Source: a virus. From it: a stretch of DNA of 44,509 bases. The notes under the pieces are model-generated. The model was not told where the DNA came from and made no database searches. It saw nothing but the letters and a program-made list of their open reading frames with translations. The translations under genes were made by a program, and so were the position numbers. Below, one piece after another: positions 4,464 through 42,722 of this stretch. The stretch lies in the UHGV virus genome UHGV-0169625; one strand, 5' to 3'. How positions within the stretch are numbered: the stretch's first letter is position 1; each line of letters opens with the position of its first letter.

Positions 4464-4494
4464 TTGTTTCTCTCCTCTCGTTTGGTATGGGCTA

Positions 4495-4523
4495 ACTATA
4501 ATAGTGAACTATTCACATGTCAA
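4495..4523 (-). promoter_or_regulatory. sigma70-like promoter (leftward) with embedded palindromic operator
   Basis: minus strand TTGACA (4523-4518), 17-nt spacer, TATAGT (4500-4495); plus strand 4498-4515 reads ATAATAG-tgaa-CTATTCA. Confidence 0.55.
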
Positions 4524-4541
4524 TGGGCTTTTCTAAAATAA

Positions 4542-19277: not shown

Positions 19278-19738
19278 TGATGGGCTTTTTCAAAGTAACT
19301 GATGTGCTGTCACGTCGTGTAGTCCAGTACGCCCGCGTGTCTGGCTCTGGCGAGAACGTGGTATTTATCGAAGATGAAAGTGTACTGGGTACACCAGTAG
19401 ACGATATGCCGTTTGCGGATAAAACCGGTATTGCGTTGCCAGCCGCGGGTATGCTTTATGAAATTCCGTATCTGGCTGACGCAGGCGACGTGTACTTCTC
19501 GGCGCAACCGCAGGACGCTGAACTGGCGGACGGCAGCGCAACTATCACTGTCGAAGTTAAGGCGGGCAAAGCGCCGTATGCTCTTACCTGGTACAAAGAC
19601 GGTAAGGAAGTTGTAAACGCACCTGAAGAGGCCTTGTCTCTGACGGTTAACGCAGCAGGTGAATACTTCGTTAAAGTCACCGATGCCGGTGGCGTAGAGG
19701 CCGTCAGTAAAGCGGCGAAGGTAACTAAGCCAGAATGA
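19277..19738 (+). CDS. Ig-like domain protein (probable capsid decoration)
   Basis: C-terminal ATITVEVKAGKAPYALTWYKDGKEV...EYFVKVTDAGG resembles a bacterial Ig-like domain; paralogous to 22475..22813. Confidence 0.5.
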   Translation: MMGFFKVTDVLSRRVVQYARVSGSGENVVFIEDESVLGTPVDDMPFADKTGIALPAAGMLYEIPYLADAGDVYFSAQPQDAELADGSATITVEVKAGKAPYALTWYKDGKEVVNAPEEALSLTVNAAGEYFVKVTDAGGVEAVSKAAKVTKPE

Positions 19739-19743
19739 TAAAA

Positions 19744-19765
19744 AGCCCCGTTAAGGGGCTTTTTA
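19744..19765 (+). terminator. rho-independent terminator
   Basis: AAAAGCCCCGTTAAGGGGCTTTTT, stem flanked by A and T runs. Confidence 0.7.
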
Positions 19766-19828
19766 GTGCCTGTGATTATTCCAGTTATTCCACTAAATTG
19801 TAAATGTTGGAATAAACTATTCGAATAG

Positions 19829-24946: not shown

Positions 24947-25359
24947 TGGGCTACTTTGAGGACTTAACCAAAGCGTTTGATGTGCCGTTGGTAGCCTTCG
25001 GGAACGCAAACGGCATCAAGGTTGCGCTTGAAAACATCGACGCGCCGACGTCAACCGATACGCCGTATCTGGCGAGTTACATGTTGCTGGCAGATACGGA
25101 ACAGGCGGATTTGTTCTTCACCGAGCAACGCTCTGGTATCTATCAGGTCGACATTAACTACGCATCGGTGAAAGGTAGCGCGCCAATCAATAAAATGGCA
25201 GACTTACTTAACACGGCGTTTAAAGCAGGTAAGTCATTTTCACGTAACGACATCTGCGCCGAGGTTCAATCGGTTAGCCTGGGGCCGCTGATTGTAGAAA
25301 ACGGATGGGCCAAAAGACCATTGTCAATTAACTTTATTACATTCACCAAGAGGCTGTGA
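24946..25359 (+). CDS. tail terminator-like protein (putative)
   Basis: 137 aa, coupled start, immediately upstream of major tail protein; positional. Confidence 0.35.
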   Translation: MGYFEDLTKAFDVPLVAFGNANGIKVALENIDAPTSTDTPYLASYMLLADTEQADLFFTEQRSGIYQVDINYASVKGSAPINKMADLLNTAFKAGKSFSRNDICAEVQSVSLGPLIVENGWAKRPLSINFITFTKRL

Positions 25360-25361
25360 AT

Positions 25362-26528
25362 ATGGCTACAACTCCTTTTAAGGGCGCGACTACCGCGCAA
25401 TTCTATGTGGCGGAAGTCACCCCGGGCGTAACACCGGCTAACCCTGTCTGGTCGCCGTTGCGTAACACTGGCGGTGTTCCTGCTATCACCCGCGACACGC
25501 TGACCTCCAACGAACTGGACGGCAGCCGTGAAACTACATCCATCCGCACCGGTAACAAACAGGTTAGCGGTGAATACGCGATCGAGCTTAGCTCGAAAAG
25601 CCAGGATGACTGGCTGGCTGGTGCTTTAGGCTCTACGTGGCAATCCGGTGTTTCCCTGTCCAGTCTGTCGATTACCGTCGCACCCGCGGGCAAGACGTTC
25701 ACACGCGCTACCGGCAGTTTTATCGCTGACGGAGTTGGGGTAGGCGACCTGATTGCATTTACCGATTTAACAGGCGATAACGCAAAACCATTTATTGTTA
25801 CTGCAGTAACGGCTACGGTTGTTACTGGTGCGGGCATCCAACACACCCTGACCACCGAGACAAAAACTAGTAAGGCTAAAACCGGCGACACGCTGGAAAC
25901 CGGTAACACGTGTAAGACGTTCTCTATCCTTACCTGGTACAAAGGCCAGTGCGGCGGTACTGACGCGTACACGTTAACCAAAGGCGTGGAAGTTTCTGGT
26001 TTTACCATCGAACAGGCTGTTAACGCGATGGTAACTGGCAGTTTCCCGTTCATCGGGCGCAGCCAGGAGATTCTCGCCACGCCGCCGACAGGTTCTGATT
26101 TCTCCTCTGTCACGTTTGGTGACGAGCCGTTCTCTTCGGTTGACGTTTCTGTGTTCGATGGCTCAACACCGTTGCGCTGCGACAGCCTGACCATCACCAA
26201 CGATAACAGCGCGTCCGCTCAGTTCGAACTCGGTAATACTAACGTAGCGTTTATTGAGCGTAGCCGCGCGGCTAACACCTTCTCCATCTCCGGCAAGCTG
26301 TACGACATGGCTATGATTCAGAAGTTTATCAACGAACAACAGGTAGAGATTAACTCTATTCTGGCGGGGGTAAACGGGGCTATGTCTTTCAGTCTGAAAC
26401 GTGCAGAACTCACGGCGGTTACGCCAGAGATTGGCGGGCCTGAGTCAATCACTCAGAGCATAGAAGGACAGTCCACAGGCAATCAATACCAGTCGTCTAT
26501 TGTTATCCAGCGTATCACCTACGCATAA
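25362..26528 (+). CDS. major tail (tube) protein (putative)
   Basis: start trimmed to ATG 25362 (AAGAGG SD); Thr/Gly/Ser-rich 389 aa; followed by strong terminator. Confidence 0.5.
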   Translation: MATTPFKGATTAQFYVAEVTPGVTPANPVWSPLRNTGGVPAITRDTLTSNELDGSRETTSIRTGNKQVSGEYAIELSSKSQDDWLAGALGSTWQSGVSLSSLSITVAPAGKTFTRATGSFIADGVGVGDLIAFTDLTGDNAKPFIVTAVTATVVTGAGIQHTLTTETKTSKAKTGDTLETGNTCKTFSILTWYKGQCGGTDAYTLTKGVEVSGFTIEQAVNAMVTGSFPFIGRSQEILATPPTGSDFSSVTFGDEPFSSVDVSVFDGSTPLRCDSLTITNDNSASAQFELGNTNVAFIERSRAANTFSISGKLYDMAMIQKFINEQQVEINSILAGVNGAMSFSLKRAELTAVTPEIGGPESITQSIEGQSTGNQYQSSIVIQRITYA

Positions 26529-26534
26529 AACTAA

Positions 26535-26556
26535 GGCCCCTTTCGGGGCCTTTTTC
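26535..26556. terminator. bidirectional intrinsic terminator
   Basis: AAGGCCCCTTTCGGGGCCTTTTT with A-run upstream and T-run downstream; lies between convergent genes. Confidence 0.75.
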
Positions 26557-26560
26557 TCAC

Positions 26561-26737
26561 TCACTCACTTTTGAATGGCATTTCGTAGAAGTTAGTTAAC
26601 TGCCCCCGGTCACTCCGTTCTGTCATTTCTTTCGAAGCCTCTTCCTTACTACCCACGGCGTAAATATCTACCCACTCGTCCCATTCTTTGTCGTATACGC
26701 GGATTACGTATATTGTTTTCATTACATTCTTACTCAT
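26561..26737 (-). CDS. hypothetical small protein (58 aa), antisense island
   Basis: ATG ORF on minus strand; start overlaps stop of 26730..26936 gene. Confidence 0.35.
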   Translation of the reverse strand: MSKNVMKTIYVIRVYDKEWDEWVDIYAVGSKEEASKEMTERSDRGQLTNFYEMPFKSE

Positions 26738-26936
26738 CAATATTACTCCTGTACTCCCGTAACTTCTCCAGACTTTCTATTGCTTCTGCTAAGTCGGTTC
26801 CTGTGTCTTTGTGTCCGCGAAGGCCCATACACAACAGCTTCTTCAATGCGTGCTGTAGCGCCGGGTCGCGTATATCGAAGGCGCGTAGCACATCATAAAC
26901 GTCTACTGTCATAGTGCTGCCGTGAGTGTTTGTCAT
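26730..26936 (-). CDS. hypothetical protein (68 aa), antisense island
   Basis: start trimmed to first ATG (26936); track shows GTG alternative at 26960. Confidence 0.4.
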   Translation of the reverse strand: MTNTHGSTMTVDVYDVLRAFDIRDPALQHALKKLLCMGLRGHKDTGTDLAEAIESLEKLREYRSNIDE

Positions 26937-26965
26937 TGTGCGGTTGTATTTATTTGTCACTGTTA

Positions 26966-27015
26966 ACTCTCTTAAATCTGGCTATGCCTGACTCTCTTAA
27001 ATCTGGCTATGCCTG
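26966..27015. repeat. perfect 25-bp tandem duplication (2 copies)
   Basis: ACTCTCTTAAATCTGGCTATGCCTG at 26966-26990 and again at 26991-27015; spans the stop codon of gene 26972..27175. Confidence 0.9.
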
Positions 27016-27175
27016 ACTCGTTAATGCTGCCTATTTCAAAGAAGCTGCGATATTTAGGCGAATACATTCTTACGTCGCCGTTCTCTAGGGTGACCCCTTC
27101 ATATACAGCGCCTACTTCGAATCCATTTTTCTCCGCGTACGGACTCACATCGGTGCATTCATACATATCTTTCAT
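26972..27175 (-). CDS. hypothetical protein (67 aa), antisense island
   Basis: track ORF; last 14 codons are encoded inside the tandem duplication. Confidence 0.4.
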   Translation of the reverse strand: MKDMYECTDVSPYAEKNGFEVGAVYEGVTLENGDVRMYSPKYRSFFEIGSINESGIARFKRVRHSQI

Positions 27176-28302
27176 CCCAGCATCTCCGGTGAAATAGTTA
27201 AACGTGCGACCTCGCCATATTCGGCACTATAGGTAATTACATTTGCGCTACGGCCTGACATCCATCCACCGCGCGAGGCGTAGGCGTCTTTAGCCGCCAG
27301 GGTGCGGTGTTGCTCAACAATCATGTTACGGCTTTCCACAATCTTCTGATGGTGGAGGTGGCCTACGTGGGCGTAGCTGTAAACGCTTTCGCCAAATGCT
27401 TTGCGGAACTTGGCAATCATAACCGGTTCGATAGCGTCGAATCGTGCCTTATGCCCGTGGTGAAAGAACAGCGTCGTTTTGCCGTGTTGCACCATCTTGT
27501 AAACATCTGGCGACGTATCGACGAACACACGAGGCTCATTGTCGTACAGCGTACTAAACATCTCAGCTAACCAAATCATTCCGCTTTCGTCGTGGTTTCC
27601 TTGCACGATAAGCAAGCGAACATTTTTATGCTTAACCAGCGCCATACCGACAACACGGCGGACCATACGAATCATGTAGCGGACAAGTTTCTGATAGCGA
27701 GTGTCCGCATCAAGGGCGTGACCGCTTGCAGGCGTAACGGCAACCAGACTGTCGAAGTGCGCGAAGTCGCCCAGCAGGTTAATAACTCCAGTTCCTGCAT
27801 CCGGCGCTTTCTGGAACGCCGCATCGAACCAGCGAGAAAACAGGTCTTCCGCAATCTTCATATCCCAGTCGTCGCCACTCTCGTCGGCCCAGGCCAGCAT
27901 ACCAAGATGGAAATCAGATACAGTGTAAAGATTGAGTAGTTTATCGTCACGTTTGGTGCGAACGGCTTTAACTGGTACAACGGGAGTAATCTCCGACTTC
28001 ATGCCTTCGATTACGGCTTTCATCAACTCGACCTGACGTTCAGCGTCAGTGTCTGTCTTAACCCATTGCAACTTAGTGTTGCCGAACTCGTCCACAAGCG
28101 ACGACGTTCCTTTAATCTTGTAGCCGTCCGGGACAAGATGGCTAACGTCACGACCGTGACCTACGCCTTTCTTCGCCAGCTTCGCTTTACGGATACGAAT
28201 AACGCGGTCTGAGATGCCGTATTTACGGGCGATGTCTACATTCTTCATCCCGGCGTTCAATTCTTCCTGTAACTGTTCGTCGGTTATTTTCTTCTGGGCC
28301 AT
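27172..28302 (-). CDS. HTH domain fused to calcineurin-like metallophosphoesterase
   Basis: 376 aa; N-terminal NVDIARKYGISDRVIRIRK (HTH); metallophosphatase motif series SDFHLG (D-x-H), GDFAHFD, GNHDE, HHGH, GHLHH. Confidence 0.6.
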   Translation of the reverse strand: MAQKKITDEQLQEELNAGMKNVDIARKYGISDRVIRIRKAKLAKKGVGHGRDVSHLVPDGYKIKGTSSLVDEFGNTKLQWVKTDTDAERQVELMKAVIEGMKSEITPVVPVKAVRTKRDDKLLNLYTVSDFHLGMLAWADESGDDWDMKIAEDLFSRWFDAAFQKAPDAGTGVINLLGDFAHFDSLVAVTPASGHALDADTRYQKLVRYMIRMVRRVVGMALVKHKNVRLLIVQGNHDESGMIWLAEMFSTLYDNEPRVFVDTSPDVYKMVQHGKTTLFFHHGHKARFDAIEPVMIAKFRKAFGESVYSYAHVGHLHHQKIVESRNMIVEQHRTLAAKDAYASRGGWMSGRSANVITYSAEYGEVARLTISPEMLG

Positions 28303-28367
28303 GCTTACTTCCTCGTGTTTAGGATTTGTCCTATTTAACCACAGTGGATTCCTTTAAATAAAGGCAA

Positions 28368-28694
28368 CTATTTACTTTCTGCGCCTATTGCCCATCCAGT
28401 CATTACCATTTGCAGACGGGTGGCTGTCAGTAGGCTGTAAAACGCGTCTCCGTTTTTCTCTACCGAACGTATTACCGTGTATGTTACGGCTTGCGGAGGC
28501 AGGCCCGATTTACCAACCTCTACGGCGGACTCGCACTCGCGAACTGTAGAGTCCTTAAATGCCTTTACAAGAGTAGGGTTGGCTTTCTCAAGCACACCAG
28601 AAGTCATAAGAACAGATTCACTAAATACCTGTTCGCACGGGGACCCAAAAGTAGCAAAAGACATAAACCCCAGAGCTAGTACTAATTTACGCAT
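28368..28694 (-). CDS. exported protein with signal peptide, first gene of antisense island
   Basis: 108 aa; MRKLVLALGFMSFATFG signal peptide; GAGGAA SD; about 22 nt downstream of leftward promoter. Confidence 0.5.
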   Translation of the reverse strand: MRKLVLALGFMSFATFGSPCEQVFSESVLMTSGVLEKANPTLVKAFKDSTVRECESAVEVGKSGLPPQAVTYTVIRSVEKNGDAFYSLLTATRLQMVMTGWAIGAESK

Positions 28695-28712
28695 AATTAT
28701 TTCCTCGGTAAG

Positions 28713-28751
28713 TTACAAGTGAATAGTACCCTATTATATTGGGGTGCGCAA
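28713..28751. promoter_or_regulatory. overlapping divergent promoters sharing one palindromic operator
   Basis: leftward: TTGCGC (28751-28746), 17 nt, TACTAT (28728-28723); rightward: TTACAA (28713-28718), 16 nt, TATATT (28735-28740); 28720-28737 is the inverted copy of ATAATAG-N4-CTATTCA. Confidence 0.45.
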
Positions 28752-28858
28752 GTAGTGTGCTAGAATAAGTTTGCGCCTAGTGTCGCACACGAAAAGCGGG
28801 TGGTTCCCGTCTGGCGCGTCAACCTTAACCTGTAACCTCTTAACCAAAGGATTAAAGA

Positions 28859-29275
28859 ATGAAACTTTCTGATTTTTATTTTGCCGACCGCCACGCTACT
28901 GGCACTAAAATGCCTATCCTTCTGCCGAGTGGTAAAGACTCCGGTGAATGGCTGCAGGTCATTGGCCCCGATTGTGATGCGGGTGTTCGTGCAGGCCGCG
29001 CCTACACAACGGCAATTCGACGCCTTACGGAAGAACTTGCGCCATTAGATAAAGAGTGTGAGGCGCTGAATAACTGGGCGCGCTATAACGATGAGAAGGG
29101 CTGGCGGGTGATGGACCTGAACAAGCAGCTCGCTGTCGAAATCGTCACCGGTTGGTCATTCGACGAGCCGTTCAGCAAAGAGGCGCTGGCTAACCTGTTC
29201 GACCAGTACAGCGGACTGGCAGAAGCCGTGGTTAAACACCACACCGATAGCCGCGAGAAACTCTCGGAAAAGTAA
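28859..29275 (+). CDS. tail assembly chaperone (G-like)
   Basis: 138 aa, AAAGGA SD, immediately upstream of tape measure; -1 frame stays open from 29251 to 29637. Confidence 0.6.
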   Translation: MKLSDFYFADRHATGTKMPILLPSGKDSGEWLQVIGPDCDAGVRAGRAYTTAIRRLTEELAPLDKECEALNNWARYNDEKGWRVMDLNKQLAVEIVTGWSFDEPFSKEALANLFDQYSGLAEAVVKHHTDSREKLSEK

Positions 29276-36793: not shown

Positions 36794-39031
36794 ATGTCAA
36801 GCGGATGCGGTGACGTTTTAAGCCTGGCGGATTTACAAACCGCCAAGAAGCACCAGATTTTCGAAGCTGAGGTTATCACCGGTAAATCCGGCGGTGTTGC
36901 TACGGGTGCTGATATCGATTACGCGACAAATCAGGTTACTGGGCAGACACAGAAGACGTTACCTGCCGTGTTGCGTGATGCTGGTTTTTCTCCTGTATCG
37001 TGGGACTTTTCTACAGGCGGTACGTTAACAGTTAATGACCGCGACAAAGTGGTGTACGACCCTGTAAGTAAAACGTGGTACTCGTACGCGGGGACGTTAC
37101 CAGTTACAGTTCCCGCGAGTTTTAATCCTGTAGGTAACGCTAACTGGAGGCCACAGACCGATCCTAATTTACGTGGTGAGTTATCCATCATTGAAAACAT
37201 AGCTGAGCTTATGTCTAAAACGCCAAACCCAGAACTCACGTACACCGTGAAAGGCTATGCCCCAGGTACGACTTTCGGCGGGGGCATTTTCTACTGGGAC
37301 GCCACCCTCCCTAAGTCACAACACAACGGCATCACTGTATTTAGTCCAACGGTGCCATGGGACGGAACCTACACCACTCTCGCGACCTTCTTAGCTGGCA
37401 CAGGGGAAACCACCCCATCCGGCAGCGGATGCTGGGTCCGTATGCAGAACAGCCGCGACATGCTCGTTTCTTGGGGCGGCGTTGACATCACAGGGACGAA
37501 CGTTGCGGACGCCGCTGTAACCGCTGTTATTAAGTATGCTAATACGGTCAAGCGTTCTGTTAGATTTGACTCTGGTGCAAATATTAAATGGGGCTTCTCT
37601 ACCCTTGTCCAGCACTTTGACAAGTTCAATCGTAATGTGCAATGTTCTGTTGTTCTGGAGAATATCAGCGGGATTAAGGTTTACGCGGAGAATGACGTTG
37701 AGTTCAACACTGACCACCCTACTTATGCGGAGCGTGTTGTCTTTCGCCTTAAAAACTGTAGCGAAGTAGAATTCTCTGGATTCAACTTCAACTCCAATTT
37801 CACCGACTATTCGACGACGACATCGGACACTACGTACAAGCCCCAAGAATGGTGGCAGGGCTTCACGGCCGAAGGTTGTTCTAATCTAGAAATCACTAAG
37901 CATCACGTTAATGCGTGCCAAGTATTTGTAGGGGCTGATTGTACAAACTTAGCAGCAAACCTTCATAACATAGATATTCATGTTACAGATAACATGTTTA
38001 AGTATGTAACGAATTACTGCGTTATTTCCAGAAACATAAATCTGGTTGAATTCAGCCGCAACAAGGTTTCATTTAATGGGCGTAACTGGCACACATTCGG
38101 AGAGGCGTTCGCCCCTACGACAGGCTCCCTTAATATAATTGCCAAAGATAACATTTTTACTAACCAAATTGCGCAGCAGTCGTGTATTACGCCAACTCTG
38201 GGCGCTTCATCTGTAACTATTCAAGGTAATTATTGCCGTCGACATTATGGTATTTTTGTCGAACTCGGTAGTTCGAGCAATGTGTTAATTTCAGGTAACA
38301 CATCAATAAGTACTGGCGAACGTGCGGATACACCACACATTCTTATGGTTGGAGAGGTAGACGGCAACCCGGCGGGAGGTCTTTCAAACGTCAACATTAC
38401 TGCAAACTATTTTGAGGGTGGTGGTTTTGCCGTTCAAGAATACAATACCGGGTCTGCATTGCGCAGGGGTTTCAGTATAACTAACAACCATATGGTTGAC
38501 TGCAAGTTACCCGCCATAACCAACCAATCTTACATTGGCGTGACTGTTCGCGGTAACTATATGGAAGCACCCACTAACTTTCCTGATTTAGCTATCGCAG
38601 GACAGAGGCCTGTTATAGACGGTAACATGTTTGTTGGCGTTAGGGTGCGTGCAAGAGATTTAGGGTATAGCGTAATAGCTCCTAAGGTAACCAACAACGT
38701 ATGGAGAGCAAACTCCATAGGGGAATCATATCCAGCACTTATCGACTATACCGAATTCACCGCATTAGTGGCGGATGGCAACGACTCAACAGCAGCGGCG
38801 TACACGGACTTCATTGTCCACCCTTTAAATTGTAATAATGTAGGGTTCCGCAGAGTAGGCCATACTGAAGGGTTTACTGTCAGCCCTACTGCAAGATTTG
38901 GAGCCAAGCTCACTGATGCCAGAGTAGGTGATTTTGTAGCTAATTCGTCCCCTACAGCATCTGGTGCTTATGCGTGGGTATGCGTTAGCCAATCAACAAA
39001 AGCGTTCAGTTCTATCGCATTGCGCGCATAA
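36794..39031 (+). CDS. tailspike/tail fibre protein (probable beta-helix receptor-binding enzyme)
   Basis: 745 aa, last tail gene, AGAGGA SD, Asn/Gly/Thr/Val-rich repetitive C-terminal two-thirds; followed by strong terminator. Confidence 0.55.
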   Translation: MSSGCGDVLSLADLQTAKKHQIFEAEVITGKSGGVATGADIDYATNQVTGQTQKTLPAVLRDAGFSPVSWDFSTGGTLTVNDRDKVVYDPVSKTWYSYAGTLPVTVPASFNPVGNANWRPQTDPNLRGELSIIENIAELMSKTPNPELTYTVKGYAPGTTFGGGIFYWDATLPKSQHNGITVFSPTVPWDGTYTTLATFLAGTGETTPSGSGCWVRMQNSRDMLVSWGGVDITGTNVADAAVTAVIKYANTVKRSVRFDSGANIKWGFSTLVQHFDKFNRNVQCSVVLENISGIKVYAENDVEFNTDHPTYAERVVFRLKNCSEVEFSGFNFNSNFTDYSTTTSDTTYKPQEWWQGFTAEGCSNLEITKHHVNACQVFVGADCTNLAANLHNIDIHVTDNMFKYVTNYCVISRNINLVEFSRNKVSFNGRNWHTFGEAFAPTTGSLNIIAKDNIFTNQIAQQSCITPTLGASSVTIQGNYCRRHYGIFVELGSSSNVLISGNTSISTGERADTPHILMVGEVDGNPAGGLSNVNITANYFEGGGFAVQEYNTGSALRRGFSITNNHMVDCKLPAITNQSYIGVTVRGNYMEAPTNFPDLAIAGQRPVIDGNMFVGVRVRARDLGYSVIAPKVTNNVWRANSIGESYPALIDYTEFTALVADGNDSTAAAYTDFIVHPLNCNNVGFRRVGHTEGFTVSPTARFGAKLTDARVGDFVANSSPTASGAYAWVCVSQSTKAFSSIALRA

Positions 39032-39035
39032 AACT

Positions 39036-39058
39036 AAGGCCCCTAACGGGGCCTTTTT
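39036..39058. terminator. bidirectional intrinsic terminator (near-copy of 26535-26556)
   Basis: AAGGCCCCTAACGGGGCCTTTTT between convergent tailspike and replication-block genes. Confidence 0.75.
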
Positions 39059-39059
39059 C

Positions 39060-39197
39060 TTACTCTTCTGATAACTTCTCCAGTACAAACGCCAGTTGCG
39101 CATTAGCGGCATATCTTTGCTGGCGTAGGCGTAGAACCTCCTCCTCGAGTTCCTTGATACGTTTTTGCAATGCTGGAATCGGGGCTATGATGTTCAT
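39060..39197 (-). CDS. hypothetical small coiled-coil protein (45 aa)
   Basis: ATG overlaps stop of TOPRIM gene (ATGA); GAGGAAAT SD. Confidence 0.35.
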   Translation of the reverse strand: MNIIAPIPALQKRIKELEEEVLRLRQQRYAANAQLAFVLEKLSEE

Positions 39198-42437: not shown

Positions 42438-42722
42438 TTAACTATAATAGCTCGCTATTAGGTCGTCAACCTGTTTAAACGAACCAACGACAAAAACATT
42501 TGCACCACGTTTACGCATCCGCTCATGCTCGCGTAACTGGTGCGGGTCTGGCTTCGTGTTTTCGTCTTTTTTAACCTCGACGAACCAGATGATGCCGCCG
42601 GGGAGAATTACCAGCAGGTCGGGAGCGCCGGAGCGCCCCTCGTAGGAAAGTTTACGAACGAGGCCCCCAATGGCCTCGAATCGCTCTTTTGCGTATTTCT
42701 GAATCTTGCCTTCCGGTGTCAT
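42438..42722 (-). CDS. VRR-NUC domain nuclease
   Basis: 94 aa; PDLLVILPGGIIWFVEVKK gives the PD...(D/E)xK core. Confidence 0.6.
   Translation of the reverse strand: MTPEGKIQKYAKERFEAIGGLVRKLSYEGRSGAPDLLVILPGGIIWFVEVKKDENTKPDPHQLREHERMRKRGANVFVVGSFKQVDDLIASYYS
42441..42469 (-). promoter_or_regulatory. sigma70-like promoter (leftward) with embedded palindromic operator, inside 3' end of VRR-NUC gene
   Basis: minus strand TTGACG (42469-42464), 17 nt, TATAGT (42446-42441); plus strand 42444-42461 reads ATAATAG-ctcg-CTATTAG. Confidence 0.5.

Follow-up and report, generated by a model that had tools for sequence, protein, structure and literature searches.

A perfect 25-bp tandem duplication in the genome of a Kagunavirus-like phage very probably arose by microhomology-mediated tandem duplication, through slipped-strand mispairing in replication, within the lineage of this phage. 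The duplication lies in the window (the whole stretch of 44,509 nucleotides analyzed here), where two adjacent exact copies of ACTCTCTTAAATCTGGCTATGCCTG, read directly from the sequence, fill positions 26966-27015. Tandem Repeats Finder returns it as the top tandem repeat of the 44.5-kb window (period 25, 2.2 copies, 100% matches, score 108); the perfect adjacent duplication reported in the first-pass annotation is thus borne out by both the sequence reading and the program. The perfect period-25 run extends over 54 nt (26966-27019), with the next four bases, ACTC, echoing the start of the unit, and a second row of the program output (2.8 copies at 88%) takes in an imperfect third copy that is already there in single-copy relatives. 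Beyond these two, no copy of ACTCTCTTAAATCTGGCTATGCCTG was found in the window on either strand with up to three mismatches, zero being expected from 100 shuffles. The elements that matter for the interpretation are the following.

26966..26990, plus strand: copy 1 of the unit, ACTCTCTTAAATCTGGCTATGCCTG; along the gene (minus) strand it comes second and is out of frame, and both the new stop codon and the SD-like GAGAG of the 76-aa gene fall within it.
26991..27015, plus strand: copy 2 of the unit, with the same letters as copy 1; along the gene strand it comes first, in the native frame.
27016..27019, plus strand: second microhomology arm, ACTC, identical to the first four bases of the unit.
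27016..27039, plus strand: imperfect third copy, ACTC-GTTAATGCTGCCTATTTCAA, with a 16/24 match to the unit and one 1-nt gap.
26972..27175, minus strand: small accessory gene, 67 aa here and 66 aa in relatives, under purifying selection.
26972..26974, minus strand: new TAA stop, reached where the second copy is read in the +1 frame (…CAG ATT TAA).
26967..26971, minus strand: SD-like GAGAG ahead of the GTG of the 76-aa gene, within the unit, native spacing kept.
26730..26960, minus strand: 76-aa gene (PHROG 2452), with its GTG start at 26958-26960.
27172..28302, minus strand: metallophosphoesterase gene, annotated 'DNA repair exonuclease' (PHROG 704), upstream in the same operon.

A comparison with relatives, proposed in the first-pass annotation as a way to tell one copy from two, gives a clear answer: the relatives are single-copy and the window strain has two. 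One copy of the unit is present in 24/24 more distant relatives examined, including all 19 GenBank phage records that span the site; in each of the 19, the match to 26931-27050 covers 95 nt in two pieces (120 minus 25). An alignment of 13 annotated or Logan relatives likewise displays a single copy within otherwise almost invariant flanks, as do 11 further metagenome contigs (L022, L024, L026-L034), which carry the same 76-aa or 376-aa protein and are at most 97.7% identical here. An apparent 58-aa variant in one of these (L033) was rejected as an allele, being a scaffold gap (a run of N). A 24-mer specific for the duplication junction had 0 matches in IMG/VR, JGI metagenomes and GTDB genomes, and no second independent occurrence was detected in more than 50,000 phage records or in three large collections. 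By sequence comparison, the duplication arose after this lineage parted from relatives of at most 97.7% identity at the site; no single-copy genome of the strain itself was found, and direction and timing both rest on this outgroup comparison.

The single-copy relatives also reveal the anatomy from which the duplication grew. They read TTA-ACTC-TCTTAAATC(T/G)GGCTATGCCTG-ACTC-GTTAATG, such that 4-nt ACTC arms, spaced 21 nt apart, bracket the 25-nt period. These arms are kept in 22/24 relatives; L004 and L026 have ACTA (the E53* change described below), and L013 has ATTC at the second arm. A random 25-nt duplication would gain 4 nt or more of extra periodicity by chance with a probability of 0.0156 (analytical) or 0.0145 (simulated on this genome). 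The ancestral unit, moreover, matches the next 24 nt at 16/24 positions with one gap, a score that places it among the highest 0.11% for pairs of adjacent 25-mers in this genome. Bracketing arms combined with an adjacent imperfect copy are a signature of replication slippage, and a slippage origin is therefore supported. Both copies have a T where relatives vary between T and G, as would be expected of copying in situ. Under the proposed mechanism, the ancestral sequence would have been ...TTA-ACTC-TCTTAAATCTGGCTATGCCTG-ACTC-GTTAATG...; a nascent strand that had passed the second ACTC would re-pair with the first, 25 nt back, aided by the adjacent imperfect repeat (TTAAC-GAGT / TTAAGAGAGT on the gene strand), and the same 25 nt would then be copied a second time. 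The imperfect third copy probably stabilized the misaligned intermediate. The anatomy that predicts a slip is observed in the sequence, and from it we infer the slip itself. Classical examples of slippage are the frameshift hotspots at short direct repeats in Escherichia coli lacI.

Such events have been defined in Schizosaccharomyces pombe as microhomology-mediated tandem duplications (MTDs), with arms of 4-25 nt and a spacing of 3-500 nt (PMC8639346), and the concept has been extended to bacteria and viruses; among tandem duplications in microbes and viruses, MTDs are reported to predominate (PMC8639346; bioRxiv 10.64898/2026.02.28.708716). Frequent reversion is a hallmark of tandem duplications in the yeast work (PMC8639346). 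The window repeat shares with MTDs a segment that is single-copy in relatives and present here head-to-tail in identical copies, a 4-nt ACTC arm and a 25-nt period that fall within the published ranges, and a location in a coding region where the event shifts the frame. Nothing of substance differs: the arm has the minimum length (4 nt being the shortest counted as microhomology), and the imperfect 16/24 repeat adds homology. Of the 'very recent slippage' offered by the first-pass annotation, slippage stands, given the single-copy relatives, the microhomology and the imperfect copy; 'very recent' needs qualifying, as the event postdates the split from relatives at most 97.7% identical and yet is the sole allele in every contig of the strain examined.

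The window belongs to a Kagunavirus-like (Guernseyvirinae) siphophage of E. coli. Around the repeat, 1.2 kb shows 94-95% identity to phages SHAK7693 and Ivi, and 84-90% to Snoke, Schulenburg and others; for a 14-kb piece of the window, the best GenBank phage records stand at only ~90-91%. The window is a near-complete genome and, on the 14-kb figure, probably represents an undescribed species-level lineage. One of the nearest records, GenBank OR594180.1 (Escherichia phage vB_EcoM_SHAK7693), is filed under Autographiviridae, Kayfunavirus, and named 'EcoM', while being 94.6% identical to this Kagunavirus-type siphophage region with matching gene order; its taxonomy line looks wrong. A short leftward operon (26561-28694), flanked by the rightward tail-tube gene and the tail-assembly-chaperone gene, houses the repeat; its five genes are, in order, a 108-aa gene, the 376-aa metallophosphoesterase (PHROG 704), the 67-aa gene, the 76-aa gene (PHROG 2452) and a 58/59-aa gene. 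A scan of 26300-29000 for promoters and terminators returned a promoter-like pair near 28700, likely the promoter region of the operon, and a bidirectional terminator at 26533-26552, with none at the repeat; Rfam and tRNA scans of the whole window gave zero matches.

The genome has other features of note. The first gene of the operon (28368-28694, minus strand) encodes 108 aa with a signal-peptide-like N-terminus (PHROG 14165), and many relatives have in its place a 63-aa T4 Imm-like superinfection immunity gene (PF14373); accessory genes seem to be exchanged at this position. A 41-nt GC-hairpin terminator module (CGCATAAAACTAAGGCCCC....GGGGCCTTTTTCT) is found at 26522-26562, 39025-39065 and 19732-19772, always at the ends of convergent gene blocks, two of the copies being 93% identical and the third weaker. 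A 33-nt element containing TATAAT (TTAACTATAATAGTTAGCTATTCAGGTGTCAAC) occurs three times (2194-2226, 4492-4524 and 42438-42470), the other two copies each 82% identical, and is probably a repeated early promoter or operator.

Within the 67-aa gene, the effect of the duplication is confined to the very end. The ORF is present on the minus strand at 26972..27175 just as first described, and the expectation that a repeat of 25, not being a multiple of three, would change the C-terminus and the stop also proved right: …VNSDK* (66 aa) becomes …VRHSQI* (67 aa). Reading along the gene strand, the first copy is in frame (…ESGIARFKRV), with copy 2 in its native frame encoding S54-GIARFKR-V62; the second is entered in the +1 frame and meets a stop six codons after V62. 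Residues 1-62 are accordingly unchanged and the tail shifts from NSDK (63-66) to RHSQI (63-67). Removing one copy in silico restores a 66-aa protein ending FKRVNSDK, as in relatives, in place of FKRVRHSQI. Among 16 alleles there are 24 synonymous versus 12 non-synonymous variable sites, and we take the gene, on this substitution pattern, to be a real coding gene under purifying selection. Pfam and PHROG gave no family match for its product, whose homologues form only five clusters, all from this phage group. An AlphaFold model (pLDDT 77) depicts a small beta-rich domain in which the last predicted strand (57-62) is intact and the altered tail is less confident; Foldseek of this model against the PDB returned no match at E <= 0.001. 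A natural truncated allele, E53*, is found in relatives from two runs. Given that the last strand is unchanged and that such a truncated allele exists in nature, a mild effect of the tail change is plausible.

The E53* allele is a GAG-to-TAG change at codon 53 in runs SRR22560167 and SRR22560170 (L004 1387-1545 and L026 1311-1469). Another relative, L005 (1162-1363, SRR28755018), has an additional G in a run of G that shifts the frame at codon 27 and could be an assembly error. The slot that follows the phosphoesterase gene is itself variable. L021 is 99.6% identical to the window from 27172 rightwards and then differs, an unrelated hydrophobic 77-aa gene (L021 4128-4361) replacing the 66-aa gene, with the breakpoint of the slot exactly at the gene boundary near 27172; L023 and L025 are without the 66-aa gene, and other relatives have HNH endonuclease genes inserted nearby.

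The duplication also alters the junction with the next gene. In relatives the stop of the 66-aa gene overlaps the start of the 76-aa gene by 11 nt, whereas in the window the two are separated by an 11-nt gap. The 76-aa gene retains its GTG start and its ribosome-binding site, a site annotated at the homologous GAG in Snoke (L003 2063-2065) and also in Schulenburg and Sciku; the SD-like GAGAG is itself duplicated, the second copy lying at 26992-26996. A frameshift fusing the 67-aa and 76-aa ORFs was considered and rejected, the frames being different and a TAA lying between them. The segment 26937-27071, comprising the 3' half of the 66-aa gene and the junction, is conserved at 97-100% of nucleotides among 13 relatives, synonymous sites included, while the genes on either side vary by 5-11%; this may reflect the overlapping ribosome-binding site and start, or a recent spread of the module. 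Against several longer PHROG profiles, the 76-aa protein aligns to the C-terminal third only (for example, positions 150-220 of 235 in phrog_2452; 171-237 of 246 in phrog_17613, 'ATPase'), and from these matches it may be a domain that stands alone here and elsewhere forms part of larger fused proteins. A protein in nr (P0005, from a TPA Caudoviricetes MAG) is a 36-aa ORF, MTNKYNRTMT+KYRSFFEIGNINESGIARFKRVNSDK, in which the N-terminus of the 76-aa protein runs into the C-terminus of the 66-aa protein. A separate tandem duplication of ~100 nt across this junction could have produced it and, equally, so could a wrap-around artefact of a circularized MAG; neither IMG/VR nor JGI metagenomes contain its junction pattern, the GenBank phages give no one-piece match, and no DNA record behind it was found. 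Overall, the effect of the 25-bp duplication on the 67-aa and 76-aa genes is most likely small, and the allele is probably near-neutral and merely carried by the strain. Neutrality is here a reading of the predicted effects; the 3' end of the gene is almost invariant among relatives, and the change could therefore be harmful.

Since the window is a metagenome contig of low coverage (cov 3.8), an assembly or sequencing artefact has to be weighed, be it a k-mer overlap from circularization, a library chimera, or a repeat that the de Bruijn graph collapsed or expanded; untrimmed circular contigs are known to yield perfect short tandem duplications, and there too the copies are undiverged. The window, however, is a raw, unrotated assembler contig (ERZ1311714 NODE_200_length_44509_cov_3.80, an ENA metagenome; the locus L035 drawn from this contig is 100% identical to window 25230-28460), free of any rotation on submission, and no repeat of at least 20 nt is common to its two ends. 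Unlike the overlap of a circular contig, the repeat is interior to the contig, is reproduced independently and is flanked by microhomology, which an artefact does not predict (P = 0.015); nor does the 25-nt unit equal any default k of metaSPAdes. At 54 nt, the periodic run falls short of both a typical read length and 55, the largest k that metaSPAdes uses by default, and single reads or k-mers therefore span it. On record are 14 contigs that encode the exact 67-aa product, duplication-specific tail included; the two-copy allele was located elsewhere only through an exact-protein index. Seven segments fetched from six other assemblies or runs all bear the identical two copies.

L014 and L020, both from ERZ1307772 NODE_1151 (20.4 kb): two copies.
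L015, from ERZ1310596: two copies.
L019, from ERZ1310501: two copies.
L016, L017 and L018, from Logan assemblies of SRR5558393, SRR5558398 and SRR5558397: two copies.

In flanking sequence they match the window at 99.98-100% identity, and the repeat is interior in contigs whose ends differ; all eight contig segments that are at least 99.98% identical to the window carry exactly two copies. The two-copy state is thus judged on assembled contigs, and the six other read sets, which may belong to one study (the SRR numbers are consecutive), speak for reproducibility and not for wide geographic spread. Resequencing, with one copy as the outcome that would count against the duplication, had been suggested in the first-pass annotation; the independent assemblies effectively amount to that experiment, and they return two copies. 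Because the identical allele lies inside differently ended contigs from six other assemblies or runs, obtained with two assembly pipelines, an assembly artefact is very unlikely and the duplication, on the contig evidence, is real; circularization or k-mer overlap is ruled out, and a library artefact is also very unlikely. The artefactual origin raised at first pass is thus contradicted by the unrotated raw contig and the other read sets, and as a reading of the whole we leave it only a very slight chance.

The same mutational origin is compatible with an allele held by selection, in which the new RHSQI tail, or the uncoupled start of the 76-aa gene together with the second SD-like GAGAG, would usefully change the activity or expression of these accessory genes, maybe reversibly, as the 25-nt repeat could collapse to one copy. 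No other allele occurs in the eight contig segments, though tandem duplications are expected to revert readily (PMC8639346); this one alters a gene junction that is otherwise nearly invariant among relatives, and its unit holds the annotated ribosome-binding site of the next gene. Yet it is confined to one clonal strain, where drift or hitch-hiking fits equally well; the searches described above yielded no second independent occurrence; the changed residues all lie beyond the last predicted strand; and the 76-aa gene keeps its native SD spacing and start. We regard selection on the allele as unlikely. That the repeat is a non-neutral, reversible, slippage-prone switch at a normally invariant junction, toggling the 66-aa C-terminus and the coupling of the two genes, and that this junction is a recurrent hotspot of duplication, is highly improbable. 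The repeat resembles contingency loci in that the frame in which the 3' end of a gene is read depends on a copy number, but those are long tracts of 1-7-nt units, whereas here a 25-nt unit is present twice, and the contigs display no variation in copy number, which at contig level is constant at two across the eight segments of the strain, unlike that of a phase-variable locus. The first-pass annotation had also offered paired direct-repeat binding sites, for instance of the iteron or operator type, or a packaging or recombination site. Two identical 25-nt tandem sites at a gene boundary, with high nucleotide conservation, are what such a function might look like, and iterons and tandem operators of phages and plasmids are likewise direct repeats of ~20-25 nt. 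Those arrays, however, are set in a non-coding promoter or origin context and usually comprise more than two sites, whereas the window repeat has two copies only, inside an ORF; the arrangement is not conserved, the 24 more distant relatives having one copy each; further copies in the genome are absent even at three mismatches; the coding sequence around it is under purifying selection; and a promoter- or terminator-like site and an Rfam match are absent there. DNA folding gave no meaningful hairpin (ancestor z = -0.7; duplicated plus strand -2.4, weak, at -5.9 kcal/mol). The single-copy relatives, the coding location, the lack of more copies and the lack of a promoter or terminator contradict this proposal, and we attach a negligible probability to it.

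Microhomology-mediated slippage, the reading preferred here, makes the 25-bp repeat an ordinary lineage-specific mutation of a known kind whose predicted effect is minor. Annotators should treat the 67-aa product as an allele of the 66-aa family with a frameshifted C-terminus, not as a new protein, and should neither 'correct' the repeat as an assembly error nor label it a regulatory repeat. Although its importance is slight beyond such bookkeeping, it provides a clean natural case of a fixed microhomology-mediated tandem duplication in a virulent coliphage, with the ancestral state kept in many relatives.
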